A DNA stretch of 64,000 nucleotides from Patescibacteria group bacterium (GCA_038063755.1 JBBTUL010000012.1:572-64571), one strand, 5' to 3'. Shown: positions 35,456 through 60,110, numbered from the stretch's first letter. Numbers and translations: made by a program. Notes: generated by a model from the letters alone, not told the origin.

Positions 35456-37083
35456 AAAACGAGCATGAGGAAAAGAAGTGTTTCATGCGCGATATTGTTT
35501 TTTATCCCGCGAGCACAGCCCGGCCGAAAAAAGAAAGAAAAGCCGGCGATCTATTTTCGAGATGCGTTGCGATCATGGCAATGTGCTCGATTATCTTTTT
35601 TCCGCTGGCTCCGGTTCGCGGAGAAGAGGCTTCCCCTGATGCGAGTGTCGATGTTTCCGAGGTCATCCAGCCCACAGGCGAAATAAACGAGACAGCAGAG
35701 GACGGCGAAAAAATTTTATCAGAACTTCCTTCGGAGCAAGTAGAACAGATCGAACTTGTTCCGGACGAGAACCCCTTTTCTGAAGAGCAGTCCGTCGAGA
35801 GCTCTTCTGGCGCAGAAAACGCAGTGCCCGAGCCAAAAGCAGAAGAAGTGCTTGTCGAAAACAACGGGGAGACACAGAGCGTCGTCTCTTCCGAAGAAAC
35901 GTCAAGCGAACCCGATCCCCTGATAAACACCGAAGAGAGCGGAGGATCGACGGGGAGTCTCTCAGCAACATCATCATCGTCAGAAGAACCGGCTGTGCCG
36001 CGTGAAGAAGAAAACAGGAGCTCAGCACCGGAGGACGAGAACGAGCCGATCCTTGAAGCTCAAGACGCAAGTACTCCATACGAGGACTTAACTACCGAAG
36101 AACTTTCCGCCAAGCTCAAAGACCAAGAAGCGCGATACCAGGAAGAGCTTGAGCGGAAAAATCGTGTCATCGAAGAGCTTACAGAAAACGCAACCCAAAG
36201 GCCGCGGAGGGAAGCGGAAAAAGAGCTTCAGGCGAGATGTGTCGCGCTTGCGCACGGATACTTTTGTCTTGACGGAGATGGCGCTGCTTCATCCGGAGAA
36301 GTGCTTGCGAGCCCGTCAGATAACGGATTTTTACGCGCCGAGCGTGTTTCCGGTAACTATGAAATATATCTGACGGGAGCGTCTGGAGAAGAGCGTATTA
36401 CTGAAAATGACTACGACGATATTTTTCCGGAACGTGATCGAGGCGGAGCAATGATCGTCTGGCAGGGAAACCCCGGAGGTACGTGGCAGATTTTTGTAAA
36501 AAATGGGCTTGATCCGGTGGAGCAGCTTACCAACACGAACGACTCGAATATGAACCCGCGCGTTTCGAGCGATTTCGTGGTCTGGCAGGGATGGCGCGAC
36601 GGGAATTGGGAAATATTTTTAGCGGAGAAAAAAAACAATATAGAAGATGGCGCGACGAGCACTGTTTCAAAAGAGTCGTGGAGCGTTGAGCGGTTAACCA
36701 CGAATATCACAAATGACATGTTTCCCAGCATCGCACGAGGACTGGTAACGTGGCAGTCATGGAATGGTTCGGGGTGGGAGATTCTTGTGTACGATATTAA
36801 AAATAAAAAAATCGAAAAACTTGAGGGTTCCGGAGTTGCAGAAAGTCCTCGCTTCGCGCTCATTGCCGAGGAGCGAAATACGGACGGAACGTTTCGAACG
36901 GTTGGATATGACCTTGCTTCAGGAAGGAAGCTAGAGCTTCACCTTGATCGTTTGCCGATTACGATACCAGTCGATCCTCCCGCCCCACCGCTTCACGAAC
37001 AGGATGGAGTTTTTCCTGCGCCTTCCGGCGGACATACAGAGAAGAAGGTTGAGGGAGGCGAAGATGGAGCTACACCAGAATGA
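35452..37083 (+). CDS. secreted protein: acidic low-complexity region + PD40/TolB-like beta-propeller repeats
   Basis: Hydrophobic N-region, a long E/S/D-rich linker, then at least 3 repeats of the form ...VWQG.(R)DG.WEIF(L/V). Confidence 0.55.
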   Translation: MKNEHEEKKCFMRDIVFYPASTARPKKERKAGDLFSRCVAIMAMCSIIFFPLAPVRGEEASPDASVDVSEVIQPTGEINETAEDGEKILSELPSEQVEQIELVPDENPFSEEQSVESSSGAENAVPEPKAEEVLVENNGETQSVVSSEETSSEPDPLINTEESGGSTGSLSATSSSSEEPAVPREEENRSSAPEDENEPILEAQDASTPYEDLTTEELSAKLKDQEARYQEELERKNRVIEELTENATQRPRREAEKELQARCVALAHGYFCLDGDGAASSGEVLASPSDNGFLRAERVSGNYEIYLTGASGEERITENDYDDIFPERDRGGAMIVWQGNPGGTWQIFVKNGLDPVEQLTNTNDSNMNPRVSSDFVVWQGWRDGNWEIFLAEKKNNIEDGATSTVSKESWSVERLTTNITNDMFPSIARGLVTWQSWNGSGWEILVYDIKNKKIEKLEGSGVAESPRFALIAEERNTDGTFRTVGYDLASGRKLELHLDRLPITIPVDPPAPPLHEQDGVFPAPSGGHTEKKVEGGEDGATPE

Positions 37084-40000
37084 CAAGCGCGATTCGATTT
37101 TTTGAGAAAAGAAGACAGCGCATCGAGGCGACGCTTGCGATTCTGCTTGCTGCCCTTTCTGCATATACGCTTCTTGTCGGTAACCAATCATTGCACGAAC
37201 TTATCCCTATTCCTCCGAAAGAAGCGAAGGCCGCGCAGGTGACGATTGATACGACCGTTTCGATTACCATCGGAAAGCACATGCTTTCCGGAAAGCAGAC
37301 GGTGTGCACGTCGGACACCGCATGTTATGCATTCTATATTGATGCGACCCCGAACGCGGAAGATATTGCCTTCGTTTCTTCGACAAACGGCGGAGCTTCC
37401 TGGGGGACGCCACATATAGTCGCCGCAGGAACGTGGCTCGGTGTCGTTATTTGGTACGATCGCTGGACTCCGGGAGATACGACCGGAAACACGGTACACA
37501 TGGTTACGTTCGAGTCCACGCTCGACCGGCTTTATTACACAAGCTTCGATACGGTAACAGAGGCGACCACAAGCGTAGTCGATGCCTCCGGAGCGGCCGA
37601 AGGGGCGCTTGCGGCAGGAAACGACCTTGCAATCACCAAGGCAACAAACGGTTATCTTTACCTTGGGACGGTCGACGCGACTGCCCCTACCGCCGGAGCG
37701 AACTTTATCGAAAAATGCCCGGCAAATTGCACGGCAACGACAAGCTGGGTGGCCGCAGGAACAAACCCGTGGACGAATGCGGGGGACAACCTCGACGGGA
37801 ATTTCGATCTTGTGATGATGCCGCTTCCTGCGGGAGATATTATGCTCGTTGCCCGCGATGTGGCGCTTGAGGACATCGAATATCAGATTTACACGAGCTC
37901 CACGAACACTTGGAATGCGAGCTTCACGGACCTCGACACCGGCGCGCAGGACATTACTACGTTTCCCTTTACTATCTCGGGCATTGCGGACACATTCAAC
38001 AACGATCTTTATCTTGCGTATGTGGCGAGCACGAGCGTTACGAACAGAAGCGAGCTTCGCGCATGGCGATATTCGTCCTCCACGTGGGCACAGCTTGCGA
38101 GTCCCTGGCCCGAGGCAACGGATGCTGTTTCCCTCATTAACGACGTATCGATTGGGATGGATTATTCCTCGGGCGATCTTTACGTCGCCTACGTGAGAGA
38201 CCCCACGAACGATGCGACGAACAACGGCAACGTTTACTACTCAAAGTCGACCGACGGAGGGACAACGTGGACCATCGACACGCTTCTTTCGAACGGCACC
38301 GTGGGAGACCTGCGCGGCATTTCAATAAATAACATCTCGAATGAACGTATCTTCGGGGTTTGGTTTAACCCGACACCGGACGACATTTTCGGAAACACGG
38401 CTCAAGACCTTACCCCGCCGACGTTTTCACAGTCCGCATATCGTTGGTTTGAAAACACAAACGCCACTTCCGTTGGCGTGGCGCTTGCCGCACAAGACAC
38501 AGCCACTACGCTTACCACCTCAAGCCAAGTATTTCGACTGCGACTCTCAGTGGATGCAGCAAACAACGGCGGGCGAAGATACTGGGTGAATGCGAAATTG
38601 CAATACGCCACCTCAACGGGCGCATGCGATGTCGGATATTCCGGCGAGACATATATAGACGTGGCAACTTCGTCTGGGCCGATTATTCTTTTCGACAACG
38701 CGCTTCCGCTCGATGGGGCAACCTCGACCGCGACTTCGAGCGATCCCGTTCACGGGGGACATCCTGCAACCGCACAGACCTACGAAGAGGCAAACCCGTT
38801 TACGAATTCAATTTCTCGTGTCGCAAGCGGCACGGACGGCATTTGGGATTTCGCTCTCAAAGACAACAACGCGCCGACAGTAACAACGTATTGTTTTAGA
38901 ATCGTTGACGCGAGCGGATCGCTCTTGGGAGCACCGAGCGTTATCCCACAGGTTACAACCTTTGCGGTTCCGACCTACACACAAAATTACTATCGATGGT
39001 ACGTGGACAACGGCACGACAACACCTTCTGATCCTTGGCCTTCGGGCGCCGTAGATATTGGGGAAAACGCTCCGATCACATATGCACAAGATCCCCCTGC
39101 CTCAGGCGAGCATTTGCGCTTGCGCATGACAAGTCAGATTGGGACAGAAGTGCTTGCAACGACAACGCAAGATTTCAAATTGCAATTCGGTACGCCATCC
39201 GCAACCTGCGGAGACGTCTCTTCATGGAACGATCTTGGCGCGCTGGGGAGCGGGGTGATTTGGCGTGGGTGGAATAGCGCCCCGGCCGACGGCACAGTAC
39301 TCGCTTCGAGCTCTCCGCAGGCGGGCGAGCTTTTGCTTTCAGTCTCGGATAGAGGAGGGACGTATGAAGAGCAAAACGGCACCGGACAAAATCCCTATCG
39401 AGTGAATATCGGGGAAGACGTGGAATACGATTGGTCCATTGAAGACAACGGAGCAACCGCATCGACGACGTATTGTTTCCGCATGACAAAAGAGAACGGA
39501 GCTGAGTTCGGGTCTTATAGTTTTTATCCAACGCTTTCTACGTCAGGATACCGACCGAAGACTCAAAACTGGAGGTGGTACGATGACGAAGCAAGCGAAA
39601 CTCCAACCACCTTTCTAGCCGCCGAAAATACTGCACCGACGAACATTGCGAATCAAAACTCCATAAAGCTGAGAATTACGATCAAAGACACGGCAAACGC
39701 TTCTGGCGTAAACGAGAAGTTTAAGCTTCAATTTTCGGAATATTCCGATTTCTCAGGAAGCGTGCAAGACGTTACTCCTGGTTCAGGTTGTTCGGGAAAT
39801 AGTATTTGGTGTTATACAGATGGCGGCGGACTAGACAACGGAATTATTACTACCAAAGTTCTCTCCGATGCAGATGCCTGCACCGGAGGAGCCGGAAATG
39901 GATGCGGAATGCACAATGAAGTTCCAACATCGACAAGCTCGTTTAGTCCAGCAGCAAACGCTGCAACGGAGTACGAGTTTACCATCAAGCAAGATGGAGC

Positions 40001-40625
40001 AAGGGCAAGCGCGGTATATTTCTTTCGGGTGTATAACGTAACGCGGAATCTTGCGACTCCACTGAACACCTCCGAGATATATCCGAGCCTTACCGTAGAA
40101 GGCGGGTCTCTTACGTTTAGTATTGGGGGCGTTGCAAGCGGAACAATAACAGAAGGGATTACGACGGATACCGAAACAACCGCAAGCACGATTCCTTTTG
40201 GAGTATTAGCGTTTGGAGCGGATAGAAAAGCCGCACACCGCCTTACGATCACCACAAACGCAACCGATGGATATAGGGTTTTCTTGTTTCAAGGACAAGG
40301 GTTTATAAACGAAGACGGGGATGAAATACCCCGCGTTGCAGGGACGAACGCGAGTCCTCTTGCCTGGGGCATCGGCTGTTATACAACCTCGAGCGGGTGT
40401 TATGGGTATCATTCAGGAGACGATGTTCTTTTCGGCGGGTCGACTCGGTTTAGCGCAGACGATACGTATGCGAAGCTCACGACATCCTCCGAGGAGATAG
40501 CGTTCAGCGCGATACCGGGAACGGCAGATACGCATGACGTTATATTCAGAACAAAGGCTTCGGGAAGCCAACCCGGCGGAACATATCAAAGCAGTATCGC
40601 CTATATCGCCGTGACATATTTCTGA
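37080..40625 (+). CDS. giant (1181 aa) Thr/Ser-rich surface protein with BNR/Asp-box repeats and a conserved C-terminal beta module
   Basis: N-terminal TM/signal, then BNR motifs (SSTNGGASWGT, KSTDGGTTWTI). N-terminal domain paralogous to the 51463 protein (AAQVTIDTTV...VIWYDRWTPGDTTGNTVHMVTFES versus AAQVTIDSTV...AIWYDRWTPGNATGTIIHVSTID). The C-terminal ~150 aa are shared with the 43136, 51463 and 58290 proteins. Confidence 0.7.
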   Translation: MTSAIRFFEKRRQRIEATLAILLAALSAYTLLVGNQSLHELIPIPPKEAKAAQVTIDTTVSITIGKHMLSGKQTVCTSDTACYAFYIDATPNAEDIAFVSSTNGGASWGTPHIVAAGTWLGVVIWYDRWTPGDTTGNTVHMVTFESTLDRLYYTSFDTVTEATTSVVDASGAAEGALAAGNDLAITKATNGYLYLGTVDATAPTAGANFIEKCPANCTATTSWVAAGTNPWTNAGDNLDGNFDLVMMPLPAGDIMLVARDVALEDIEYQIYTSSTNTWNASFTDLDTGAQDITTFPFTISGIADTFNNDLYLAYVASTSVTNRSELRAWRYSSSTWAQLASPWPEATDAVSLINDVSIGMDYSSGDLYVAYVRDPTNDATNNGNVYYSKSTDGGTTWTIDTLLSNGTVGDLRGISINNISNERIFGVWFNPTPDDIFGNTAQDLTPPTFSQSAYRWFENTNATSVGVALAAQDTATTLTTSSQVFRLRLSVDAANNGGRRYWVNAKLQYATSTGACDVGYSGETYIDVATSSGPIILFDNALPLDGATSTATSSDPVHGGHPATAQTYEEANPFTNSISRVASGTDGIWDFALKDNNAPTVTTYCFRIVDASGSLLGAPSVIPQVTTFAVPTYTQNYYRWYVDNGTTTPSDPWPSGAVDIGENAPITYAQDPPASGEHLRLRMTSQIGTEVLATTTQDFKLQFGTPSATCGDVSSWNDLGALGSGVIWRGWNSAPADGTVLASSSPQAGELLLSVSDRGGTYEEQNGTGQNPYRVNIGEDVEYDWSIEDNGATASTTYCFRMTKENGAEFGSYSFYPTLSTSGYRPKTQNWRWYDDEASETPTTFLAAENTAPTNIANQNSIKLRITIKDTANASGVNEKFKLQFSEYSDFSGSVQDVTPGSGCSGNSIWCYTDGGGLDNGIITTKVLSDADACTGGAGNGCGMHNEVPTSTSSFSPAANAATEYEFTIKQDGARASAVYFFRVYNVTRNLATPLNTSEIYPSLTVEGGSLTFSIGGVASGTITEGITTDTETTASTIPFGVLAFGADRKAAHRLTITTNATDGYRVFLFQGQGFINEDGDEIPRVAGTNASPLAWGIGCYTTSSGCYGYHSGDDVLFGGSTRFSADDTYAKLTTSSEEIAFSAIPGTADTHDVIFRTKASGSQPGGTYQSSIAYIAVTYF

Positions 40626-40627
40626 AC

Positions 40628-41671
40628 ATGATAAAATTCAAGAACTTTTTCCGCGGAAAAACATTTTTATATATAGTCACCGCTTTTTCTGTCGGAGTTT
40701 TTTACGTTACGCTTCCATTACCCGCGGAAGCGATTATTTCAGTAAGCCGGTTTTTAGAAATGCATCCGGCGGTCGTCGACCTGAAAGGAATGCCGCGTGA
40801 CATTTTAGGGGGAGAATTTCAAATTAGGAATATTGCCGATCATCGCATTGCGGTGTATCCATTCGTTTACGGAGTCGAAGAAGAAAACGGAGTACAGAAG
40901 TTTTTAGATTCATCACTTGCAGACCAAGCGGAGTCGCTTGCGAATTGGATATCGCTCCATCGCGGCGTCATCATGCTTGATCCCGGAGAAGAGAAAAAAG
41001 TGCAATTTAACTTGCAAATCAATTTGCGAGCAGAGCCCGGGTTCTACCACGCAGTTATCGGGGTTGGCGAAGGTGCGACAAGAGATGATGCCGAGCAAGA
41101 TATTTCTCGCGCAGCAACGCTTGCGGTAAATGTTGAAGTGATAAGCGATGTTCGGGTAGACTTTGCTCTCAAGTCATTCCGAGCGACAAAAACATTTCTC
41201 GTGGGATCATCTCCGGCATTCTCGTACCGCGTCCTAAATAACGGAAATCGGCCAGAAGCTCCTCGTGGTGAGCTTCGAATATATAACCGCCGAGGGAAAG
41301 AGATTTCGTTTATCCCAACGAACACTGAGGGAAAGATTGTCTCGCCAGGCGAGGAAGCACCCTTCTCGGTCAATTCGGAAGCCGTTTTCCCGATTGGAAG
41401 ACATAAGGCGTTTCTCGATGTTTCTTACGGAGAAGAGGGCGGAAAACACCTTACCGATACAGCTTTTTTCTGGGTTTTCCCGCTGATTTGGGTGTTTGCG
41501 GTTGGAGTGCTGTTTTTCGCGATTATCATAGCCGCCATTGCTTTACACTATATATATGAGCGACGGCACAGGAAAACGGTCCAGATGCACCCCATGAGGC
41601 CATATGCCCACGACATTATCGACCTTCGCAGGGGCGCGGGGCAAACAAGAGACAAGAACGGAAATGAATAG
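40628..41671 (+). CDS. membrane-anchored surface protein, paralog family A (signal peptide + two beta-sandwich domains with N-x-G-N motif + C-terminal TM)
   Basis: Signal peptide, then ...VLNNGNRPEAPRGELRIYNRRGKEISFI..., then C-terminal TM FFWVFPLIWVFAVGVLFFAIIIAAIAL and a basic tail. Paralogous to the proteins at 41664, 44389 and 60191. Confidence 0.6.
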   Translation: MIKFKNFFRGKTFLYIVTAFSVGVFYVTLPLPAEAIISVSRFLEMHPAVVDLKGMPRDILGGEFQIRNIADHRIAVYPFVYGVEEENGVQKFLDSSLADQAESLANWISLHRGVIMLDPGEEKKVQFNLQINLRAEPGFYHAVIGVGEGATRDDAEQDISRAATLAVNVEVISDVRVDFALKSFRATKTFLVGSSPAFSYRVLNNGNRPEAPRGELRIYNRRGKEISFIPTNTEGKIVSPGEEAPFSVNSEAVFPIGRHKAFLDVSYGEEGGKHLTDTAFFWVFPLIWVFAVGVLFFAIIIAAIALHYIYERRHRKTVQMHPMRPYAHDIIDLRRGAGQTRDKNGNE

Positions 41672-42983
41672 AATCCATCGCGTGCGCAGAGGGACGATTG
41701 CAGGTGTTATTCTTTTTTGCCTAATTACGTTTTCTCCCTTATCGCTTTTCGCCGCGGAAAAAGTTTCCCTCACCATCACCCCGCCGCTTTTTCAACTGAA
41801 CGTAAAACCTGGAGATTTCTGGTCGAGCTCAGTGAGGGTGATAAACGCGAATAACGCGCCACTCACTTTATATGCTCGTGTGTACGGATTTATCGCAGAG
41901 GGAGAAGACGGACACGGAGATTTTATTTCTATTAGCGAGGGTGCGAATGGAGACGACGCGATGCTTGCGCGATGGATTAATCTTCAAGAAAAAGAAATAG
42001 AACTTTCTCCTGGTGCAAGTGGAGAGATTCCATTTACCATTTCGATTCCAAAAAGCGCTCCTCCTGGAGGGCAGTATGCAGCAATCCTTGTTGGAACCGC
42101 TCCGCCGGAGTTTTCATCGGTGGGACCGGCAATGCTTGTCTCTGGATCTGTGTCGTCTCTTCTGTTTGTCCGGATCGATGGAGACGTGCGCGAGGAAGGG
42201 GTGATTAGAGAATTCGTCACCGAGGAAAGTGTTTATCAATCGCCAAGAGCAAATTTTTCTGTTCGCTTTGAAAATCTTGGAAATGTTCATCTGCGTCCGC
42301 AGGGCGATATCACGATCTATAATATGTGGGGAAAAGAACGCGGAAGGATACTGGTTAACCAACAGACAGATTTTGGAAATGTTCTTCCGAAGAGCACGAG
42401 AAAATTCGCCTTCGAATGGATTGGAGAGAGCAACCTCTTTGAAGCGGGAAGGTATCGCGCCGTCGCAACGCTGGCCTACGGCCGCGACGCGCGACAAAAT
42501 GTCTCGCGATCAGTCACTTTTTGGGTTATTCCGACGAAAGAGACCATCGCGGTTTTCGGAAGTCTCATTTTTGGAGTATGGTGCCTTATTCTTCTTATTC
42601 GAAGGTACGTCCGACGCGCACTTAGGCTGGAAATGGTGCGTCGCGGAATGCATGATGGGATAAACGGGCATGATGTTTCTCGTCTGCGTGATGAAAAACC
42701 ATTGTTGCGACCGGAAGTTCTCCTAAGACCGCTTGAGATTGGCATCGTTGATCTTCGAAAAACAAAAGAAGCACTTGAAAAAACAGAAAGCAAAAACAAA
42801 AAACTCATTGCAAGGGGCTTGCTCAGGAAATACGTTCTTGTTCTTGTTTTTATCCCGACAGCTTTATTTTTGATTCTTTGGTTCTTTGTATATTTTAAAG
42901 AGGTTCTCGTGAAAGAGAGAGTGTTCGAGATCAACATACAAAAAGAAAGCTCATCTCTCGCGCAGAGCCGAGCAATAGTCTAG
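41664..42983 (+). CDS. membrane-anchored surface protein, paralog family A
   Basis: RIDGDVREEGVIREF...FENLGNVHLRPQGDITIYNMWGKERGRIL, plus a C-terminal TM and a second TM near the end. An 8-nt overlap with the upstream paralog suggests an operon. Confidence 0.6.
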   Translation: MNRIHRVRRGTIAGVILFCLITFSPLSLFAAEKVSLTITPPLFQLNVKPGDFWSSSVRVINANNAPLTLYARVYGFIAEGEDGHGDFISISEGANGDDAMLARWINLQEKEIELSPGASGEIPFTISIPKSAPPGGQYAAILVGTAPPEFSSVGPAMLVSGSVSSLLFVRIDGDVREEGVIREFVTEESVYQSPRANFSVRFENLGNVHLRPQGDITIYNMWGKERGRILVNQQTDFGNVLPKSTRKFAFEWIGESNLFEAGRYRAVATLAYGRDARQNVSRSVTFWVIPTKETIAVFGSLIFGVWCLILLIRRYVRRALRLEMVRRGMHDGINGHDVSRLRDEKPLLRPEVLLRPLEIGIVDLRKTKEALEKTESKNKKLIARGLLRKYVLVLVFIPTALFLILWFFVYFKEVLVKERVFEINIQKESSSLAQSRAIV

Positions 42984-43018
42984 GACAGAGAAGGCGAAAA
43001 AGGAGGATTCGTGCAGGG

Positions 43019-43082: not shown

Positions 43083-43135
43083 TTGCCGAAAAGGAAAGGT
43101 CGTCGGTATATTACCGCAATAACATTTAAAATTTC

Positions 43136-44260
43136 ATGACAGACGTACGTTTCATAGGAAAAGAAAAAATGGAGCTTATTGCGATCGCTCTTATTGTGAG
43201 CTTGGTAATGTGGACGGCTGGATTCTCTCTCTGGGTGCGTCACGCCGAAGCCGCAAACCTCACAAACGTAAGCGACGTATTAAGCAGTTCTGACCTCGGA
43301 GTGGTTGCAACGCATACAATTCAATACACCAATGCGACAACCACGATTTCCGGCCAGACGATCCGAATCACATTCGATCCAACAACCGACGCCTTTGGTG
43401 GCATACAAAGCCTTGTAACATCGAGCGTCACGTTTTCCGGAGCAAGCCTTGTGGGAACCTGTACGGGTGCCGCAAGCGAAGTGACGCTCACGACAAGCAC
43501 CGCGGCAAATGACGAAAGCGTTATTTTCACCGTGTGCGCGGGTGATACGGTTTCGGCTGGAGCAAAGACAATTACAATCAATGGGACTATTACGAATCCC
43601 GTGGGAGCAGGTTCTTATATTGTCCGCATTGCAGGAACACAGGACAATTCTGCTGACACGCGAGTCGCAATCATAAGCAGCGTAACGGTAACCGCTTCGG
43701 TTGATACAAGCTTCACGTTCACTATCGCAGCGGTAGCAACTGGAACGGATGTGAACGGGACGACCACAACCGCAAACAGCACCGCAACGGCAATCAACTT
43801 TGGAACTCTAGTTCCTGGACAAGCAAAGTTTATTGCTCAAGAGCTTTCGGTTACGACAAACGCAAAAAACGGATTCATAGTTACCGTAAAAGAAAATCAA
43901 AATCTTCTCTCCTCAACAGGAGCCGACATAGATCTCTTTAAGGACGGAAGCTCAATAGCAGCGCCGACCGCGTGGACGTCTCCACTCGGAACTCTCGATC
44001 AAGAGAATACTTACGGCCACATTGGTCTTACGAGCGAAGACTCAGATTTAAACGGTGATGAGTTTGCAGCAGGTCTCTACGCTGGAAACTTCCAAGCGAC
44101 ATCAAGCAGGCAGGTTTTCTCGCACACTGGACCGGCTGACGGAACGACTGCTGACAAGGGACTTACTCAGGTCGGCTATCGCATCCAGGTCACCGCACTC
44201 CAAGAAGCTGCGAACGACTACACGAATACGCTTACCTACGTGGCAACCCCGACCTTCTAG
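43136..44260 (+). CDS. secreted Thr-rich protein carrying the shared C-terminal pilin/WxL-like beta module
   Basis: Signal/TM with cleavage-like AEA-AN. Body INFGTLVPGQAKFIAQELSVTTNAKNGFIVTV aligns to IPFGVLAFGADRKAAHRLTITTNATDGYRVFL of the 37080 protein. The terminal strand is DYTNTLTYVATPTF. Confidence 0.55.
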   Translation: MTDVRFIGKEKMELIAIALIVSLVMWTAGFSLWVRHAEAANLTNVSDVLSSSDLGVVATHTIQYTNATTTISGQTIRITFDPTTDAFGGIQSLVTSSVTFSGASLVGTCTGAASEVTLTTSTAANDESVIFTVCAGDTVSAGAKTITINGTITNPVGAGSYIVRIAGTQDNSADTRVAIISSVTVTASVDTSFTFTIAAVATGTDVNGTTTTANSTATAINFGTLVPGQAKFIAQELSVTTNAKNGFIVTVKENQNLLSSTGADIDLFKDGSSIAAPTAWTSPLGTLDQENTYGHIGLTSEDSDLNGDEFAAGLYAGNFQATSSRQVFSHTGPADGTTADKGLTQVGYRIQVTALQEAANDYTNTLTYVATPTF

Positions 44261-51462: not shown

Positions 51463-54093
51463 ATGCGCAGTGTCCTTATGAAGAAAGAATTTGTTCATGT
51501 CAGTGTTATAGCTCTCGCCATCGGACTTTTGTGGTTCGGGAGCGTGCGCCTCCTTTTCCTTTCTCCCCCGAACGAGGGGCGCGCTGCCCAGGTGACGATT
51601 GATTCGACCGTGCACACCACGGCGACCACCCACAACGGTACGACGCTTACCGTTGCCTTCACGAGCGATCAGACCGGATACTCATTTTACAGGGACGCGA
51701 GCGGCAGTTGTGGATATCGGAAAACCACCGACGGCGGAGCGACATGGACGACGACCACGACACTCATAGATACGCAGACGGATTGTCTCCGTATCGCGAT
51801 CTGGTATGACCGCTGGACGCCGGGAAACGCCACCGGAACCATTATCCATGTTTCGACGATCGACTCCGGAAGTGACAACGTGTGGTACAACTATCTCGAC
51901 ACATCGGGTGACACGCTCGGAAGCACAACCGCGGTAAACGCGACCGGCATAAATCAAGGAGGAACGTTCGCTGCCGGATCGAATCTTCAGGCGATAACAA
52001 GAGGAACGGACGGAACATTGTATATGGGTGTTCAGGATGCGAGCGATTCGTTCGTGATCCAGTGCACGGGAAGTTGCGTGGCGACATCGGGGAGCTGGAC
52101 GGAGGCCGGGACGAACCCTTTTAGTTTGGCGAACGACTGGCTACTACTCGCGCCCATCACGAACGGGCGCATCCTCGCGGTCCGTTGGAGTCTCACGCTC
52201 GACGATGTGCAGTCTAAAATTTGGACCCCCGCATCGAGCTCGTGGAGCGGAGCGTGGACCAATATCGACACGAACTGTATTCAGAACGGTACCTACGACG
52301 GACACTTCGGTCTTTCAATCAACAAAAATACAAATAGCGTGTTGATGGCCTTCGGTTGCGATCTGAGCACCATTGGAGCGAACAACGACGACATCCGGAC
52401 CGCAATTTTTAACTCGTCGAACAGTACCTGGGCTACCACCACAGATGCGGTTACGAACGATACGAAGGGTATCACCGGAGTAAAGCTCGGACTCGACGAC
52501 AATACCGGAAATATTTATGTGGTTTACAGCGCGAGGGCGACGTCGACCATCTCCACCTCGACGAACGTCTATTATAAGGTTTCGACGAGCACCATGTTGT
52601 CGTGGGGAGCAGAGCAAGGGCCATTAAACACCGCACCCGACGACATATACGGCCTGCGCATCGATGGATTGAACGCGGACAGGATTTACGCGACATGGGT
52701 GGGTGTCACCGCGGACTCGCTTTACGGAAACACCGTTGCCGATCTTGTGCCGACCACATTCGAACAGTCGGGATATCGCTGGTTTACGAATCAAAACGCC
52801 ACAAGCGTGGGGCCTCCATTCGCGCTTCAGAATACATCATCCGTTGCGCCGAGCATCGGCAATCCGTTTCGTTTGCGCATGTTGGTCCATGTCGGAGGCG
52901 ACGGCGCGGACGTAAACAGGGAATCTTTTGATCTTCAGGTCGCGACAAGCACTGCGGGCGGGTGCGACACCGCTTTCTCCGGCGAAACATACGTCGACGT
53001 TTCGACATCGACCGGAGAAATCCGTTTCTACGACAACAGCTCGTCGAGCGACAATACCGCCCTCAAGGCGACATCGACGGATCCGGTTCACGGAATCGAC
53101 ACCGTCGTAAACCAAACCTACGAAGAGGCGAATCCATTCACGAATTCGATAGCGAAAATATTCGGCGGACAGGACGGGAAATGGGACTTCTCGCTCTACA
53201 ACGCATCGGCGACCCCGATGAGCACGTATTGTTTTCGTATTGTGAGGGACGACGGATCCCCTCTAAGTACATATTCGGCCGTTCCCGAAATAACGATAGA
53301 CGACCCGCCATCCGTTTCGGGCGTCGTGCTAAACGATGATACAAATATTGCGCTTACTGAGGGGGTAACGTGGCAGATTTTTGCGAGCGGAACTATTACC
53401 GATAGCAACGGATATGCTGATATCGTCGGCGCGCAAGCAAAAGTATATCGATCCGGCGTAGGACGGTCATGTTCGCCGAATGACAACAACTGCTACCAAG
53501 ATAGTTCATGTTCTCTTGCGGGGTGTTCTGGGACGACGTGCAAGGCTCTTTGTTTTGTGAATGTGCAGTATTTTGCCGATCCGACAGATACCGATACGCC
53601 ATACGAAGCAGAGTCCTGGCTTGCAAGTATTGAAGCCGTTGACGCGCGATCCGCAACAAGCACGGCAACAAGCACGGCGATTGTCGATGTGCTTTCGCTT
53701 CTCGCGCTTGCTGTGACGCCGCAGATAAATTATGGAAGCCTGAGTCCAGGCGCGATTATCGATCCGCTCTCCGCGACATCAAGCGTGTCCGCAAGCGGCA
53801 ATGTTTCGATTGACACAACCCTTTACGGTGCGAACATGACTTCGGGGGCGGAGAGTATCAGCGTCTCGAATGAGCGGTACGCAACCACGTCAATTCCTTT
53901 TTCATCGGGGACAGTGCTTCTTGCAAGTCCGGGAGCCGCGCTCGATTTAAACATTCCAAAAACGTCAACCTCAACCTCACAAGCAAGCTCAACTGTTTTC
54001 TGGGGCATACAGGTTCCACTACCGCAGCCAACCGGAAACTATACCGGCATTAATACGTTTATCGCCACAGAGAACACTCTTCCCTGGCCGTAG
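51463..54093 (+). CDS. giant (876 aa) BNR/Asp-box surface protein, paralog of the 37080 protein
   Basis: Conserved N-domain and a BNR motif (KTTDGGATWTT). Shared internal block DPVHGIDTVVNQTYEEANPFTNSIAKIFGGQDGKWDF, versus DPVHGGHPATAQTYEEANPFTNSISRVASGTDGIWDF in the 37080 protein. Shared C-terminal module ends NYTGINTFIATENTLPWP. Confidence 0.7.
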   Translation: MRSVLMKKEFVHVSVIALAIGLLWFGSVRLLFLSPPNEGRAAQVTIDSTVHTTATTHNGTTLTVAFTSDQTGYSFYRDASGSCGYRKTTDGGATWTTTTTLIDTQTDCLRIAIWYDRWTPGNATGTIIHVSTIDSGSDNVWYNYLDTSGDTLGSTTAVNATGINQGGTFAAGSNLQAITRGTDGTLYMGVQDASDSFVIQCTGSCVATSGSWTEAGTNPFSLANDWLLLAPITNGRILAVRWSLTLDDVQSKIWTPASSSWSGAWTNIDTNCIQNGTYDGHFGLSINKNTNSVLMAFGCDLSTIGANNDDIRTAIFNSSNSTWATTTDAVTNDTKGITGVKLGLDDNTGNIYVVYSARATSTISTSTNVYYKVSTSTMLSWGAEQGPLNTAPDDIYGLRIDGLNADRIYATWVGVTADSLYGNTVADLVPTTFEQSGYRWFTNQNATSVGPPFALQNTSSVAPSIGNPFRLRMLVHVGGDGADVNRESFDLQVATSTAGGCDTAFSGETYVDVSTSTGEIRFYDNSSSSDNTALKATSTDPVHGIDTVVNQTYEEANPFTNSIAKIFGGQDGKWDFSLYNASATPMSTYCFRIVRDDGSPLSTYSAVPEITIDDPPSVSGVVLNDDTNIALTEGVTWQIFASGTITDSNGYADIVGAQAKVYRSGVGRSCSPNDNNCYQDSSCSLAGCSGTTCKALCFVNVQYFADPTDTDTPYEAESWLASIEAVDARSATSTATSTAIVDVLSLLALAVTPQINYGSLSPGAIIDPLSATSSVSASGNVSIDTTLYGANMTSGAESISVSNERYATTSIPFSSGTVLLASPGAALDLNIPKTSTSTSQASSTVFWGIQVPLPQPTGNYTGINTFIATENTLPWP

Positions 54094-54125
54094 GATTCTC
54101 GAAAACTCCTGGTACAATAAGAGGT

Positions 54126-55625
54126 GTGAAGAAGAATTTTAAGAAAGAAGACTCCGTTAGAGTACTCATTCTTGTGTTCGCCATCGTTTTTTTTGCTGCG
54201 TCCACGAATCGGTTTCTTGAGCGTGCGATAGCAGAGGATGCATCGCCGCCGAAAATATCACAAATAAAGATTCTTGAGACAAACGCCACCTCTGCAGTGA
54301 TTACCTGGATCACCGATGAGCCAGCAGATTCACTTCTGAACTATGGACTTGATACCCGATATGGCACGGCCAGAGATCCGCAGCCACTTGTCCGCGATCA
54401 CTCCGTTGCCGTCACCGAACTAGAGCCTTCAACGACTTACTACTTTCGAGTAATGTCGGTTGATGCAACCGGAAACCAGAGCATCTCGGGGCATTACTCT
54501 TTCACGACGCCAACAACAAAAGAAATTTCAGGAATTGAGAAGATCGAAGAGCCAACTCAGCGCTCGCTTGTCGAGAAGGCAGCCTCCCTCGTCGAGAAAA
54601 TTACAGACCCAGATGCGCTAAAGCTTGTTGCGAAAGAAATCGGGAATGCTGCCGAGCGCATCGTTGATCGGCCACAGATCGTCGGTGCACCCGAGCTCCA
54701 GATCGGATCTGATCAGGTGTCCGTGCGGTGGGAAACAGATATAGATGCGAATTCGCTTGTTTCATTCGCGACAGAGGAAGAGTACGACGGTGAAGATTCA
54801 TATCGCCGAAAAGAAGGGGACGAAGGAGCATATACAAAAAATCATGAAGTAATTCTTTATGGCCTCCGTTCGGCGACAAAATATCATTATCAGATTTCTT
54901 CAAGAGGGGAGGTTGGACCTACCGCAAAAACGAACGACAAGACCTTTGTTACGCGCGCCCTTCTTCCGCAGATTTTCGACTCGCGCATCGATAAGGTCGA
55001 GGAGTACGCGGTGACGGTAAGCTGGGCGACGACCATCCCTTCCGCTGCGCTTGTGGAGTACACCAACATGCGAACGGGGGAGAGCAAGTCAATCGGCAAT
55101 CCGTCTTTTCTCGTGAGTCATGTTCTCCGCATTCAAGATTTAAGCTATAAAACTCCTTATGCGATTACTATTAAAGCCAGGAATCAGCTTGGAGAAGAGG
55201 CGGTGAGCAATCCATTAAACTTCACAACGACAAAGGACGAATATTCCCCCGCCATTTCTCGCGTGAGCAACGAATCGACCCTTTATCCGGCGGCCGATGC
55301 GAAGATACAGACGATTGTAAACTGGGAGACCGACGAACCCGCAGCTTGCCAACTTTTCTACGGACAAGGGCTTTCGATTGACGAAAAAAGCACGTTTTCA
55401 CTTCCTGAAAACCCATATTTTACAACAAGCCACGTAGAGGTCATTACCGCGTTTGCTCCGTCAACGGTCTACAAATTCTGGATTTCATGCCGCGACCGAA
55501 ACGAAAACAAGAGTCGATCCGAGGATTTTGTGCTTTTTACGCCCCAGAAAGAAAAAAATATTATTGATATCATTCTCGAAAATTTTCAAGGAACTTTTGG
55601 CTGGTTGGGTTCGGTGGGAAAATAA
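54126..55625 (+). CDS. secreted protein with about four fibronectin type III-like domains
   Basis: GTG start followed by a signal peptide. Fn3/PAP-N-like repeats (PPKISQIKILETNATSAVITWITDEP...TTYYFRVMSVDATGN). Confidence 0.6.
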   Translation: MKKNFKKEDSVRVLILVFAIVFFAASTNRFLERAIAEDASPPKISQIKILETNATSAVITWITDEPADSLLNYGLDTRYGTARDPQPLVRDHSVAVTELEPSTTYYFRVMSVDATGNQSISGHYSFTTPTTKEISGIEKIEEPTQRSLVEKAASLVEKITDPDALKLVAKEIGNAAERIVDRPQIVGAPELQIGSDQVSVRWETDIDANSLVSFATEEEYDGEDSYRRKEGDEGAYTKNHEVILYGLRSATKYHYQISSRGEVGPTAKTNDKTFVTRALLPQIFDSRIDKVEEYAVTVSWATTIPSAALVEYTNMRTGESKSIGNPSFLVSHVLRIQDLSYKTPYAITIKARNQLGEEAVSNPLNFTTTKDEYSPAISRVSNESTLYPAADAKIQTIVNWETDEPAACQLFYGQGLSIDEKSTFSLPENPYFTTSHVEVITAFAPSTVYKFWISCRDRNENKSRSEDFVLFTPQKEKNIIDIILENFQGTFGWLGSVGK

Positions 55626-55635
55626 TCACGACAAT

Positions 55636-56946
55636 ATGCCAGAACCAATCATCACAGGAAAAGATCTTCGCGTAGTGTACAATCTTGGGAAGTCCAACGA
55701 GTATCTTGCTCTTAAGATCGACGATTTCGAGATATACCCGCAAGAATACATTATTTTATTCGGTCCTTCTGGGTGCGGGAAGTCAACACTGCTTTACTCC
55801 CTTCTTGGGGTTCTTCCCCCGACATCGGGAGAGCTTCTTATCAAAGGTGAGAACCCGTACAAATATTCGGATGCGAAAATGGTTCGTTTCCAGCAGTCGG
55901 TTGTCGGAATCATTTATCAGTCATTTAACCTTATCCCCTCGCTTTCCGTTTTGGACAACGTTGCCTTGCCGAGAATTTTCGCAAATGCACCCAAAGCAGA
56001 ACGCGAACGACAAGGATTCGCACTGCTTCGAAGATTCGGAGTCGAAGCACAGGCGCGCAAGCTTCCAACGTCTCTCTCGGGAGGACAAATGCAGCGTATC
56101 GCCGTTGCCCGTTCGCTCGTAAACGATCCGGAAATACTTTTGGGCGATGAGCCGGTAGGAAACCTTGACAGCGTTTCGACGAAGCAGGTCATGGACACGT
56201 TGGACGAAATCAATATGCGAGATAGAAAAACAATCATTCTCGTTACGCACGATGCGAAGCATTTGCCATATGCGCACCGCGTTTACCACATGAGAGACGG
56301 AAAGATTGTCCGAGAGGTCATTAATCCGGAAAAGCCGCAGATAAAAAAAGTTGAGAAGGGAAAAACGATTTTAACCGAGATCGAAAAGCTTTCACGCATA
56401 TTCCCATATGCAACTCCAGAAGAGCTTCGCGTGAAGAGCATTGTAAACTTTCTGACACAAGAACTTACCTTCGATCAGCTGCAGCGACTGGAGGTTCTTG
56501 TGGAATCTTTTTTGAACGGAAGACTCGAAGAAGCGACATTTTTATGGAGCCTTCGCGCTCCATTCGACAAGGGAGGCGCCGGGGTTCCGGAACGCACCGC
56601 AGAAGAAATGGTTCACCGAGTATCGAAAATCGTCACGGATGCAAGGAATATAAGCAGATTCAGAAGGCGATTCGAAGAGCGTGTGAAGTCCTCGAAACAG
56701 CAGGAAAGAATCATTGATTTAAGAAAAAGCCTACTTGATGCTTACGAAGGGCAAGTAACACTCGAAGAGCTCGGTCGCCTTGAGGGGGCTCTCCAGAGGC
56801 GCGTATCGGGCCTTATGACCCTCGAGGAATTTAGGGAGGAGCTCCACAAGCCGCTTGAGCAGGGCGGGATTGGATTTCACACCTCGACCGCGCATAGATT
56901 TTCTCAACATCTTGAGAAGTTGATTGCGCAAGGAACGCATTTATAA
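55636..56946 (+). CDS. ABC transporter ATP-binding protein (MacB/LolD-type) with about 200-aa helical C-terminal extension
   Basis: Walker A GPSGCGKSTLL, signature LSGGQMQRIAVARSL, Walker B ILLGDEP, and a long extra C-terminal domain of unknown function. Start taken at the first ATG after the upstream gene. Confidence 0.8.
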   Translation: MPEPIITGKDLRVVYNLGKSNEYLALKIDDFEIYPQEYIILFGPSGCGKSTLLYSLLGVLPPTSGELLIKGENPYKYSDAKMVRFQQSVVGIIYQSFNLIPSLSVLDNVALPRIFANAPKAERERQGFALLRRFGVEAQARKLPTSLSGGQMQRIAVARSLVNDPEILLGDEPVGNLDSVSTKQVMDTLDEINMRDRKTIILVTHDAKHLPYAHRVYHMRDGKIVREVINPEKPQIKKVEKGKTILTEIEKLSRIFPYATPEELRVKSIVNFLTQELTFDQLQRLEVLVESFLNGRLEEATFLWSLRAPFDKGGAGVPERTAEEMVHRVSKIVTDARNISRFRRRFEERVKSSKQQERIIDLRKSLLDAYEGQVTLEELGRLEGALQRRVSGLMTLEEFREELHKPLEQGGIGFHTSTAHRFSQHLEKLIAQGTHL

Positions 56947-56947
56947 C

Positions 56948-58156
56948 ATGAGACTAGACGATACCATAAAACTTTCCACGCGCATGTTTAAGACGAATCC
57001 GGCACGTACGTGGCTCACCATCCTCGGTATGGGCGTGGGAACTTCCGCGGTTGTCCTTCTGGTCGGACTTGGATTCGGACTGCAAGGCATTCTTCTCGAG
57101 CAGATTGTTTTTGGAGATACGCTCTTAAGCTTAAACGTTACAAATCCCGGATCTCGCGTAGTGGTTCTTGATCAGTCGCGACTCGAAGAGTTTTTGAAAA
57201 TAGAAAACGTAGAGGACGTCTCGCCGCTCGGAAGCGTTTCGGCGCTCATCACATTCAACAACCTAACCGGAAACATAACGCTTCAAGGAAGCGGACCATC
57301 GTATTTTCGCTACACCGGGACGCTTGCTGACAAAGGAGGAATTTTTAAAAAAGGGGAGGAGGCGGAGGACCGAAACAAAGTTCTTCTTTCTAAAGGAGCG
57401 CTGAAACTTTTTGGAATCGAGAACACAGAAGACGCATTGGGTAAGCCCGTTAGGTTTCGCGCGTTTGTAAAAAATCCGACGAATGGCACGACGCAAGAGG
57501 TTTCGATTGAAAAGGAGTATACCGTGAAGGGAGTAACGAACGATGCAGCTTCGATAATCGCCATGCTCACCCTCGAGGAATTTTCTTCGCAGGTTCCGAT
57601 TTCTTCCTACGAGCGCGTTCAGGTCAAGGTGACGAATAGCAACTTCCTCACTCAAGTACAAGACGCCATTGTGGGGAAAGGGTTCGTGGTAACGGCGCTT
57701 TCAAAAACGGTCGAACAAGCGAATAAAATTTTTAAAGGAGTACAGGCCGTGCTCGCATGTTTCGGAGGAATAGCACTTCTGGTTTCTGCAATCGGAATGT
57801 TTAATACGATGACCGTCACCCTGCTTGAGAGAACGAACGAAATCGGCATTATGCGAACCATTGGGGCATCACCGCGAGACATCAAGATACTGTTTCTTTC
57901 CGAATCGGTTGTCGTGGGATTTTTGGGCGGGGTAATCGGAATACTGATCGGAGTAATAATAGGCGTCGGATTAAACCTGATTTTAAACGCCGTGGCGAGT
58001 CATTTCGGAGGAGTTGCTGTCCGTCTTTTCAGATATCCATGGCTCTTTCTCATTTTTATTGCCACATTTTCCGGCGTAGTGGGGTTCCTGACCGGACTTT
58101 TTCCTGCAAAAAGAGCTTCGGGGCTGAACCCGCTCGACGCAATTCGATATAAGTAG
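56948..58156 (+). CDS. ABC transporter permease, FtsX/MacB-like (N-terminal TM, large extracytoplasmic domain, 3 C-terminal TM)
   Basis: MacB-PCD-like periplasmic region followed by an FtsX domain ending in the GLNPLDAIRYK motif. Starts 2 nt after the ATPase stop. Confidence 0.75.
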   Translation: MRLDDTIKLSTRMFKTNPARTWLTILGMGVGTSAVVLLVGLGFGLQGILLEQIVFGDTLLSLNVTNPGSRVVVLDQSRLEEFLKIENVEDVSPLGSVSALITFNNLTGNITLQGSGPSYFRYTGTLADKGGIFKKGEEAEDRNKVLLSKGALKLFGIENTEDALGKPVRFRAFVKNPTNGTTQEVSIEKEYTVKGVTNDAASIIAMLTLEEFSSQVPISSYERVQVKVTNSNFLTQVQDAIVGKGFVVTALSKTVEQANKIFKGVQAVLACFGGIALLVSAIGMFNTMTVTLLERTNEIGIMRTIGASPRDIKILFLSESVVVGFLGGVIGILIGVIIGVGLNLILNAVASHFGGVAVRLFRYPWLFLIFIATFSGVVGFLTGLFPAKRASGLNPLDAIRYK

Positions 58157-58230
58157 TTTTTGTGTTCAGCCTTCTTCCGCTCTTCCTCTTGCGAGGGGAA
58201 AGTGCTTATTTTCCGAAATAAAAGACCGGA

Positions 58231-58242
58231 TGTGGATAACTT
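58231..58242. promoter_or_regulatory. second copy of the TGTGGATAACTT motif, upstream of the 58290 gene
   Basis: Exact 12/12 identity with 43019-43030. It lies about 50 nt upstream of the start codon. Confidence 0.3.
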
Positions 58243-58289
58243 CTGGATTTCCTGTGTGTTAAGATAAGGCTATAAGGAATTTTGAAAGA

Positions 58290-60110
58290 ATGAACGAAAG
58301 AAAAGCAGGAAAAATAACGATTTCAGTTGTGCTTGTCAGCGCAATTATATTCGTTTCGGCAATGGCCATTCGGTTTTCTCCGTTCGTTCCGGTTCATTTA
58401 AGTAGCGTAAATGCGGATACCGCAACAACGAGCGTGACGGTAGTAAACACTCCGCCGAATTGGAGCGTGGATGCGCAGGAATATGTTGTGTCATCGACGA
58501 GTACGCCGACAAATGCAAGCTCCACGGTAACCTGGGTCGGTACGGCCATCGACGACAACAGCGAAAACTATTATTTATTGCTTTGCAAGACGACCTCAAC
58601 CCCAACCGCAAACGCGAGCGCCGCGCCTACTTGTGCCGGCGGGGCATCGAATCAATGGGGAGTCTCTCCTTCAACAATAAGTAGCATTCAGGCTACCACC
58701 ACCTATATTGCCAAGGTGACAGATGTTGAGGCAAACGACTGGTATGCCTGGATATGTGATGGAAACCCCGCAAATCCCCGTTGTAATACCACATACAAAA
58801 CAGGAACCGGCAATACCGCCTCCCCCTTTGTGGTGAACCATCGGCCGGCATTTACCTCTTTTGTTGACGATTCGCCCAAAAACCCAGGCGACACGGTTAC
58901 TTGGACTTCAGTATCAAGCGATGCCGATGTTTATGGCGGACAAGATCTAGTAACGCTCTATGTGTGCAAGGCAAGTGATTTTAATGGAACAGCATGTGGT
59001 GCAGGCGGAACATATTGCACTTCGAGTGCAACATCTTCCAATCCAACCTGCAACTTCGCGCTTGAAAATCCGAAGCAAGACACGAACTACTCCGCGTATG
59101 GTTATGTAATCGATAACCATAATTTCGCGGCGCTGGGCGGATCACATGGATCCGATTCGTCGATTACTATTTCAAACGTTGCGCCAAGCATCGCGTCTTC
59201 GAGCATACAACTTCTTGACACCGATGAAGCAGGAGGGCTTACGCTTACGAGTCCTTCGGCACAAACTAGCGGTTTTAAAGTTAAGCTTACCGTGACAGAC
59301 AACAATAGCTGTCAAAACGCATCCGCAGGACAGGAGATCGCCTCAGCGCTTGTTAATGTGTATCGATCGGGTATTGGACAGGCAGGCTGTCAGACGAGTG
59401 GAAATTATAACGCAAATAATTGTTATGCGGGAGCAGTCAGTACTTCAACCTGGAATGTTTCCTGCACGCAAGATGGAGGATCGTGTTCTGGCGGATCTGA
59501 TTCAACGGCGACCTGGACGTGTACTTTCCCACTCTGGTTTCTCGCAGATCCGACCGACGGCTCTTCGCTTACCGACTCAACATGGTTTGCCGAAAACTGG
59601 CTTCCTTCAGTTCGTGTGACGGACGACAATACTGCAACGAGCACACTCACCGAAGCAAGCTCTGGAAACGAGGTGTTGAGCTTTATGGCGTATACGCTCA
59701 ATACTTCGCAAATCAGCTATGGCTCTCTTGAACCAGGACAGAGGAACGATCCCGTCTCTCAGACAACACTTTTTTCGGCTACCGGAAACGTTGGGCTTGA
59801 CCAAACGCTCTATGGAAACGATATGTGTACAACATATCCAAGCTGCAATCCTGTAAGCACCACATCAACCATTCCCAAGGGGAAACAGCACTATGCGACC
59901 TCAGGTCTTGCCTACGCCTCGGCCATAGCGCTTATAGTGGATCCGGGAGCAGAGCTTGAGCTAAATGTCCTAAAAACGACATCAACGAGCACTCCAGCAA
60001 ATGCAAACACCTTCTGGGGGATCGAAATTCCGTCAAGCATTACTCTCGCAGGAGACTATACCGGCCAAAACACGTTTATTGGGATAAAAGGGGAAGCGCA
60101 AAGCTGGTAG
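58290..60110 (+). CDS. secreted Thr/Ser/Cys-rich surface protein carrying the shared C-terminal beta module
   Basis: Signal peptide. The C-terminal ~170 aa (ISYGSLEPGQRNDPVSQTTLFSATGNVGLDQTLYGNDM...DYTGQNTFIGIKGEAQSW) align with the C-termini of the 51463 and 37080 proteins. Confidence 0.6.
   Translation: MNERKAGKITISVVLVSAIIFVSAMAIRFSPFVPVHLSSVNADTATTSVTVVNTPPNWSVDAQEYVVSSTSTPTNASSTVTWVGTAIDDNSENYYLLLCKTTSTPTANASAAPTCAGGASNQWGVSPSTISSIQATTTYIAKVTDVEANDWYAWICDGNPANPRCNTTYKTGTGNTASPFVVNHRPAFTSFVDDSPKNPGDTVTWTSVSSDADVYGGQDLVTLYVCKASDFNGTACGAGGTYCTSSATSSNPTCNFALENPKQDTNYSAYGYVIDNHNFAALGGSHGSDSSITISNVAPSIASSSIQLLDTDEAGGLTLTSPSAQTSGFKVKLTVTDNNSCQNASAGQEIASALVNVYRSGIGQAGCQTSGNYNANNCYAGAVSTSTWNVSCTQDGGSCSGGSDSTATWTCTFPLWFLADPTDGSSLTDSTWFAENWLPSVRVTDDNTATSTLTEASSGNEVLSFMAYTLNTSQISYGSLEPGQRNDPVSQTTLFSATGNVGLDQTLYGNDMCTTYPSCNPVSTTSTIPKGKQHYATSGLAYASAIALIVDPGAELELNVLKTTSTSTPANANTFWGIEIPSSITLAGDYTGQNTFIGIKGEAQSW

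Follow-up and report, generated by a model that had tools for sequence, protein, structure and literature searches.

Why four secreted proteins of one uncultured groundwater bacterium should end in what looks like a common beta-rich module is the question raised by the DNA analysed here, a 64,000-nucleotide stretch (the window) of a genome contig from a Patescibacteria group bacterium [GCA_038063755.1, JBBTUL010000012.1:572-64571], a member of the Candidate Phyla Radiation (CPR). An earlier note, written from the sequence alone, took the four ends for one homologous module of about 150 amino acids (aa) on otherwise different proteins, likened it to pilin and WxL surface domains, and proposed that it serves shared anchoring or polymerisation. 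We read the region as two adjacent paralogous clusters for chaperone-assisted, usher-less surface fibres or adhesins, kin to the Pam pilus of CPR bacteria and to the WxL gene clusters of Firmicutes, and give this reading a probability of roughly 0.6. The matter bears on a wider problem. The lifestyle ascribed to CPR bacteria is one of attachment to host cells, Paceibacteria form the largest CPR class, and to our knowledge the attachment organelles of CPR bacteria are almost unknown outside Saccharibacteria.

All four open reading frames (ORFs) are present on the + strand where the earlier note had placed them, and the terminal strands quoted there are exact. Each protein begins with a signal or transmembrane (TM) segment. 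Their C-terminal modules fall into two families, designated type A (o37080 and o43136) and type B (o51463 and o58290); coordinates are nucleotides (nt) of the window.

o37080, 37080..40625, + strand: 1181 aa; signal/TM segment, weakly BNR-like propeller (BNR_2 and BNR_4 matches, sub-threshold), repeated immunoglobulin (Ig)-like domains, linker strand and C-terminal type A domain; read as an adhesin-bearing pilin subunit.
Type A domain of o37080, residues ~1010-1181, nt 40107-40622, + strand: found by the hidden Markov model (HMM) of the o43136-family module at E 2.1e-16, and by the NCBIfam model NF058581 over residues 1034-1181.
o43136, 43136..44260, + strand: 374 aa; pilin-sized type A subunit, module at residues ~185-374, nt 43688-44257.
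o51463, 51463..54093, + strand: 876 aa; N-terminal 620 aa homologous to o37080, type B domain at residues ~741-876, nt 53683-54090.
o58290, 58290..60110, + strand: 606 aa; signal peptide, Cys-rich Ig-like domains, type B domain at residues ~458-606, nt 59661-60107.

Within each pair the relationship is firm. The tail of o37080 aligns with o43136 in BLASTP (E 6e-8 over 102 aa), and the HMM match listed above joins residues 1010-1179 of o37080 to model positions 8-187, linker strand included. The tail of o51463 aligns with o58290 at E 2e-34 over 264 aa and is recovered by the type B family HMM at E 7e-41. An HMM scan of the window ORFs detected neither module on any further ORF. Both modules belong to large families. 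The o43136 family comprises more than 1,327 clusters at 90% identity, with relatives in at least 191 species-level genomes labelled nearly always as Paceibacteria, Paceibacterota, Parcubacteria, Lloydbacteria, Sungbacteria, Kaiserbacteria or Minisyncoccia, or with generic labels of metagenome-assembled genomes; the type A module has been found on 131 ORFs in 82 loci, in size classes of ~375 aa, ~455 aa and 1143-2317 aa. The profile of the last 148 residues of o58290 collects 1,880 clusters at 50% identity (E up to 1e-3), in which the type B module stands almost always at the extreme C-terminus of carriers of 108-3,571 residues; giants of 4244-5436 aa ending in a type B domain are encoded in two further loci (L090 and L092). 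It is therefore hardly credible that composition alone, in secreted proteins rich in Thr and Ser, accounts for the shared motifs, with no common module behind them. The proteins are indeed rich in T, S, A and G, and similarity between the pairs is short, but the within-pair E values (2e-16 and 2e-34), the conservation of each module as a large family and the lower scores of other beta domains from these proteins, as well as of shuffled and reversed profiles, all speak against it, and for within-pair homology chance and composition are refuted.

The closest described counterpart of type A comes from the filaments of Ca. Mycosynbacter amalyticus, which have been solved by cryo-EM. In their pilins, PamA and PamB, a linker strand connects an N-terminal beta-sandwich with a C-terminal domain of truncated Ig fold; the subunits polymerise through donor-strand exchange, and the donor strand is reported to be strongly conserved. 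The same operon encodes two PapD-like chaperones, PamC and PamD, each of two domains and with its C-terminal TM helix retained (10.64898/2026.03.03.709456). The NCBIfam model taken from that preprint, NF058581 (CPR_Pam_pilin_C, added in 2026; curated cut-off 55 bits), matches the type A modules of the window over model positions 2-148 of 148 and up to the exact C-terminus, with E values of 1.8e-4 for o43136 and 7.6e-4 for o37080. It also matches 12 of 56 members of the o43136 family and 14 of the 16 C-terminal domains from the ~455-aa class, the giants and o37080 itself (best E 4.4e-9), one of which touches the PamT model as well. Each of these matches is significant and extends over the whole model, yet stays sub-threshold. 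By these profiles, type A is distantly related to the C-terminal domain of CPR Pam pilins.

The predicted architecture of o43136 is likewise that of a Pam pilin: a signal peptide ending in AEA before A is followed by a beta-sandwich (residues 43-179) in which the pair Cys109/Cys134 is invariant, by the linker strand (193-199) and by the C-terminal domain (~215-374). The AlphaFold model (predicted local distance difference test score, pLDDT, 92.7) places a helix at 9-33, about 9-10 strands across 43-179, an isolated strand at 193-199 and a beta domain at 231-372. Linker columns V183, A187, V189, T191 and F195 are invariant or nearly so in the family, and the linker is conserved across pilin-sized, ~455-aa and giant type A proteins. 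Profile searches of the PDB, in a copy in which no Pam pilin structures were found, returned no solved relative of type A or type B, nor did Firmicute WxL queries; Foldseek with the whole o43136 model gave only generic two-Ig-domain matches with poor TM-scores, a result that agrees with a pilin-like Ig fold but does not decide the matter, since Ig-like folds cross-match freely and the aligned regions are unreported. In many relatives one to three additional type A proteins of ~450 aa are encoded upstream of the ~375-aa pilin (L003 5635-9745; L009, L013-L015 and others); this class, which the window lacks, resembles the PamA/PamB pair in size.

The second line of evidence lies in the genes that accompany the modules. 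WxL clusters of Firmicutes encode a small WxL protein, a large protein with a C-terminal WxL domain, a WxL-interacting protein (WxLIP) of the architecture DUF916-DUF3324-TM and a small LPXTG protein (PMC9772566, PMC10599100); the WxL-WxLIP interaction is in effect a donor-strand complementation, though not so named. Four genes of the window encode proteins of the WxLIP kind.

o40628, 40628..41671, + strand: 347 aa; WxLIP-like paralogue 1; signal peptide, C-terminal TM helix 275-312; family HMM E 1.1e-33.
o41604, 41682..42983, + strand: 433 aa as called from nt 41682; WxLIP-like paralogue 2; signal peptide, C-terminal TM helices; family HMM E 1.9e-75.
o44389, 44389..45480, + strand: 363 aa; WxLIP-like paralogue 3; signal peptide, two Ig-like domains, C-terminal TM helices.
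o60191, 60191..61138, + strand: 315 aa; fourth, divergent WxLIP-like protein, directly after o58290; signal peptide, TM helix 273-311; family HMM E 2.8e-7.

The first three are mutually paralogous in BLASTP. The window proteins stay sub-threshold in Pfam, o41604 reaching PF06030 (WxLIP_PGBD) at E 0.003; many orthologues of o44389 carry PF06030, one of them being named DUF916 protein, and 49 of 57 members of the WxLIP-like family match this model (best 9e-12), PF11797 (HBD) being matched by only one of the 57. Searched against the PDB, the family profile finds EfmWxLIP1 of E. faecium (9i1y, 9i25) at E 4e-5, and its hhalign comparison with seven Firmicute WxLIPs drawn from enterococcal, listerial, lactococcal and lactobacillal plasmids gives a probability of 97.8% and E 8.5e-13 over 235 columns (residues 22-268), which span both Ig-like domains. 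Both domains and the C-terminal TM helix of a WxLIP are thus found in the neighbouring genes, and by profile comparison o40628, o41604, o44389 and o60191 are homologues of the Firmicute WxLIP (DUF916-DUF3324 plus C-terminal TM helix). Each has a signal peptide, Ig-like domains and at least one C-terminal TM helix, the arrangement described for the chaperones of the Pam operon; no NCBIfam Pam-chaperone model matches the WxLIP-like family. A WxLIP-like gene adjoins both module classes, in the window as in other genomes.

The order of the type A cluster (o37080, two WxLIP-like genes, o43136, one WxLIP-like gene) parallels that of plasmid WxL clusters (large WxL, LPXTG protein, small WxL, WxLIP); in the type B cluster the WxLIP-like gene follows o58290, and o51463 lies four genes upstream. 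The definition of a WxL cluster (Hassan et al. 2023) applies only on condition that modules of types A and B are allowed to fill the WxL slot. The window contains neither an LPXTG protein nor a sortase gene. One small gene follows the last WxLIP-like gene of the type A cluster.

130-aa membrane protein, 45485..45877, + strand: a helical middle flanked by hydrophobic segments at the N- and C-terminus; encoded directly after a WxLIP-like gene.

This gene is conserved after the WxLIP-like gene in L003, L004 and L092, in the slot taken by the small LPXTG protein in Firmicute WxL clusters; its product may be an anchor or accessory protein.

Homology of the partners invites another interpretation, in which the module is a non-polymerising surface anchor that binds the wall, the WxLIP-like protein or both, and displays passengers without forming any fibre. 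We hold it to be unlikely, though it deserves serious weighing: the partners are true WxLIP homologues, the cluster layout mirrors that of Firmicute WxL clusters, the module is C-terminal on very varied passengers (108-3571 aa) as in large WxL proteins, and type A and WxL profiles show weak collinear similarity (P 0.005 and 0.011). In hhalign, type A meets large WxL proteins at P 0.0049 over 45 columns, comprising the FG motif and the first 'WxL' strand, and small WxL proteins at P 0.011 in the final strand (WxL profiles built from only 7-8 plasmid sequences); type B meets WxL at P 0.05-0.09, with controls at P 0.099-0.82. A greedy alignment of type A with WxL keeps three motif blocks in order, G-F-x-V and T-Y-V-A replacing both W-x-L motifs. 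Against an anchor stand the match of type A to a pilin model built on filaments solved by cryo-EM, the full pilin layout of o43136, whose strongly conserved linker strand would be superfluous in an anchor, and the absence of PF13731 (WxL) matches and of true W-x-L motifs. PF13731 is found neither in the four window proteins (E up to 1) nor in the 56 members of the type A family and the 82 of the type B family that were scanned. Conversely, NF058581 matches none of the Firmicute WxL proteins, and HMM and jackhmmer searches over all collected sequences joined neither type to WxL. Neither module contains the two conserved motifs D-x-R-G-T-x-A-G-W-x-L and Y-x-T-x-h-x-W-x-L; aligned with them are N-A-x-N-G-F-x-V and D-Y-T-N-x-L-T-Y-V-A in type A, and T-G-N-V-G-L-D and Y-T-G-x-N-T-F in type B, with similar spacing and strand positions but without conservation of the residues. 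The WxL-like tail seen in the earlier note is hence supported weakly by direct profile comparison and strongly by gene context, and not by the motif residues or the Pfam model; membership in either named family, WxL or SCPU (PF05229), has to be given up, as neither module family matches its model. The broader idea of a pilin/WxL-like beta module for shared anchoring or polymerisation holds, with type A matching the Pam pilin C-terminal model and both classes adjoining WxLIP homologues.

Type B is the less easily placed of the two. The module makes up a domain family that has yet to be described, and neither Pfam nor NCBIfam was found to hold a model for it; AlphaFold models the last 273 residues of o58290 with a pLDDT of 95.4. 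The cluster contains, between the two module genes, the following conserved components.

o54126, 54126..55625, + strand: 499 aa; N-terminal TM segment and FN3 repeats (fn3, Pur_ac_phosph_N).
MacB-type ATP-binding cassette (ABC) transporter, 55453..58156, + strand: ATPase ORF 55453-56946 (true start uncertain) and FtsX/MacB_PCD permease 56924-58156.

The same order is found in L090, L092 and L093, namely a giant with the module, the FN3 protein, the ABC ATPase, the MacB/FtsX permease, a module protein of ~420 aa, a WxLIP-like gene in the slot after it and a dockerin protein. A 151-aa protein of L093 that looks like a bare type B module has been left aside; since its start lies at a masked run of N, it probably represents the truncated end of the giant gene upstream. 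The FN3 protein o54126 is reminiscent of the RbmA-like PamR, although its anchor is N-terminal. In a different lineage (L091 1-9068) the type B protein P0332 directly follows a sortase gene and a 2465-aa SpaA-domain protein, so there the type B module adjoins a classical sortase-pilus locus.

These components give some substance to the view that types A and B are unrelated, type B being a sorting or attachment domain recognised by the MacB-type ABC machinery and its likeness to type A a convergence on a Thr/aromatic beta-hairpin. The FN3 protein, ABC ATPase and MacB/FtsX permease are conserved in the type B cluster and absent from the type A cluster; NF058581 matches neither type B protein of the window and only one of 30 type B domains (E 0.043); no bridge between A and B was found by BLASTP, HMM or jackhmmer among all collected sequences, and the hhalign probability is only 3-10%. 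Yet the type B gene has a WxLIP-like gene directly after it, both in the window and in three further genomes, the two clusters adjoin in several genomes as one conserved super-locus, and profile-profile comparison picks out two blocks which are collinear at low alignment stringency. The first is I-x-[FY]-G-x-L-x-P-G (hhalign P 0.015); the second is the terminal hairpin, with h-x-h-x-h and [DN]-Y-T-x-x-x-T-[FY] on either side of 8 residues (P 0.003 with a score of 24.6, and P 0.009 in another comparison), in which the eight-residue spacing from the penultimate strand to [DN]-Y-T is identical in both families. This score exceeds all 60 of 60 column shuffles (maximum 16.1) and five controls with unrelated beta domains or reversed type B (at most 17.4); a reversed type A profile, a self-palindrome control, reached 21.0. 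The AlphaFold models of both modules are similar in the order of their secondary-structure elements: a first strand leads through the FG loop to a long strand, a tight turn and another strand, after which come a long penultimate strand and the final strand. Similarity of A and B is thus above chance with homology unproven, and on these profiles a remote relation may exist; unrelatedness combined with convergence appears to us improbable. The single homologous module of the earlier note stands within the pairs (E 2e-16 and 2e-34), its extension across them being unproven.

A further point against unrelated functions is provided by the passengers. The four proteins had been called otherwise different, which is wrong for o37080 and o51463: in the all-against-all comparison they have ~620 N-terminal residues in common (37% identity, BLASTP E 4e-105). 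The head has thus been kept and the C-terminal module swapped, and the occurrence of homologous passengers on either module argues that both are functionally interchangeable and do equivalent jobs. The homologous heads lie at 37080-38950 and 51463-53300 and give weak matches to BNR/sialidase-like propellers; a repeat unit of ~190 aa is common to o37080 (residues 632-820 and 831-1025) and o51463 (432-611).

The assembly of surface fibres or adhesins by two paralogous clusters may then be pictured as follows. The C-terminal module would be an Ig-like acceptor domain with one strand missing. After Sec export, a membrane-anchored two-domain WxLIP-like protein would hold the module by inserting a beta-strand into the gap, the presumed partners being o40628, o41604 and o44389 for type A and o60191 for type B. 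In type A the linker strand upstream of the module would then replace the chaperone strand in the neighbouring subunit (donor-strand exchange) to give a linear fibre, in which o43136 would be the major subunit and o37080 a subunit whose N-terminal domain has been replaced by a large propeller-plus-Ig adhesin. The type B proteins o58290 and o51463 may form a second, divergent class working in the same way with its own partner, the MacB-type ABC transporter and the FN3 protein.

Several points weigh against this scheme. What the data show are the two module families, their domain layout, the homologies to the Pam model and to WxLIP, and a conserved synteny; strand insertion and polymerisation are steps that we infer, as is the adhesin function of the large heads. 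The 55-bit cut-off of NF058581 is not reached (19.6 bits for o37080, 21.6 for o43136, 30.8 for one listed relative). Type B has no significant match to any Pam, WxL or SCPU model, and its link to type A consists of two short motifs (P 0.003-0.015). The equivalence of PamC/PamD and WxLIP is architectural only. Finally, WxL proteins are currently described as peptidoglycan-binding anchors and not as polymers, and we know of none that polymerises.

Nearly every gene from ~35 to 64 kb of the window lies on the + strand, and this, together with a weak tail-tube match, had briefly prompted consideration of a phage origin. The idea was abandoned, since every relative lies on a contig of a CPR genome and among conserved neighbours of cellular kind. 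Identical copies of o44389 are present in a Patescibacteria group bacterium entry at NCBI (AAB495_03340), in GCA_964357965.1 and in a Hainich groundwater metagenome. Upstream of o37080 (35051-37083) lie a gene for a 134-aa protein with a helix-turn-helix-like N-terminus and a TM segment, and a second gene for a 543-aa (called 532-aa) membrane-anchored protein with beta-propeller repeats (TIGR04275, E 4e-14); these may be a regulator and a further surface component. Cohesin/dockerin pairs are encoded inside the conserved super-locus at 45885-47609, 48155-49942, 61089-62288 and 62327-63307: o48155 and o62327 each combine a cohesin-like N-terminus (PF00963) with a TM helix at the C-terminus; o45843 and o61089, which share 36% identity over 257 aa, end in dockerin repeats. 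Their domain content suggests that proteins dock to the CPR cell surface in a second, cellulosome-style way. Within the surface-protein locus there is also a small heat-shock gene of the HSP20 family (47652-48158), in a synteny kept in L004. Elsewhere in the window, G+C falls to 0.39-0.41 at 2001-6000 as against ~0.49 in the rest, and a single tRNA-Arg(CCG) at 23594-23666 is the only RNA gene detected.

The locus is a concrete and widely conserved candidate for the attachment apparatus of Paceibacteria/Parcubacteria, and the giant adhesin heads appear interchangeable on common assembly modules. The Pam system itself is already known (2026); new are the type A module on giant adhesin subunits in a CPR class not highlighted by the preprint, and the type B family. 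New as well is the WxLIP homology of the chaperone-like genes, which joins the Pam and WxL literatures, neither of which cites the other or makes the link: the Pam preprint contains no mention of WxL or DUF916, and among the papers searched none names WxL or DUF916 together with CPR. WxL surface proteins are involved in enterococcal and listerial virulence, and the WxLIP link suggests strand complementation or exchange as their mechanism.

Among the known systems, the archaic Csu/SCPU-type chaperone-usher pili (PF05229; PDB 7zl4, 8cio) differ from the present system in that here there is no usher, outer membrane or soluble periplasmic chaperone, the donor strand would be an internal linker instead of an N-terminal extension, and the subunits have at least two domains; PF05229 matches neither the window proteins nor the type A and type B family members, and no usher or PapD family was detected among 20 neighbouring proteins scanned. 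With the WxL clusters the locus shares the gene set and order (large module protein, small module protein, membrane-anchored two-Ig-domain partner, small anchored protein), a partner homologous over both domains, and the collinearity with type A of h-x-F-G, the first WxL strand and the 'Y-x-T-x-T-W-x-L' tail. It differs from them in the lack of a PF13731 match, in the replacement of Trp and Leu in both motifs, in the weak similarity of the modules (P 0.005-0.09) and in having neither LPXTG protein nor sortase in the window. Compared with the Pam pilus, to which the NCBIfam models NF058581 and NF058579 belong, the bacteria here are Paceibacteria/Parcubacteria, whereas the preprint highlights Saccharimonadia and Microgenomatia; the type A module also ends giants with propeller and Ig passengers (1181-2317 aa), the chaperone-like genes are WxLIP (DUF916) homologues, a link absent from the preprint, no ATP-synthase neighbourhood was seen in the examined part of the locus, and the type B module class with its ABC transporter has no Pam counterpart. 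Common to both are the CPR background, two-domain chaperones with a C-terminal TM helix in the operon, the lack of an usher, and the end-to-end, sub-threshold match of the type A module to the Pam pilin C-terminal model. The Paceibacteria locus may be a bridge between the Pam and WxL systems, because in it Pam-like subunits adjoin bona fide WxLIP homologues. We put forward, tentatively and as somewhat short of an even chance, that the Pam pilus and the Firmicute WxL/WxLIP clusters are one ancient monoderm-type, chaperone-dependent and usher-less assembly system, in which WxLIP and PamC/PamD would form one chaperone family and the WxL, Pam C-terminal, type A and type B domains would all be strand-deficient Ig acceptors; Paceibacteria would then carry two such systems with giant adhesin subunits, and the WxL proteins of Enterococcus, Listeria and lactobacilli would assemble by strand complementation or exchange, possibly into fibres.

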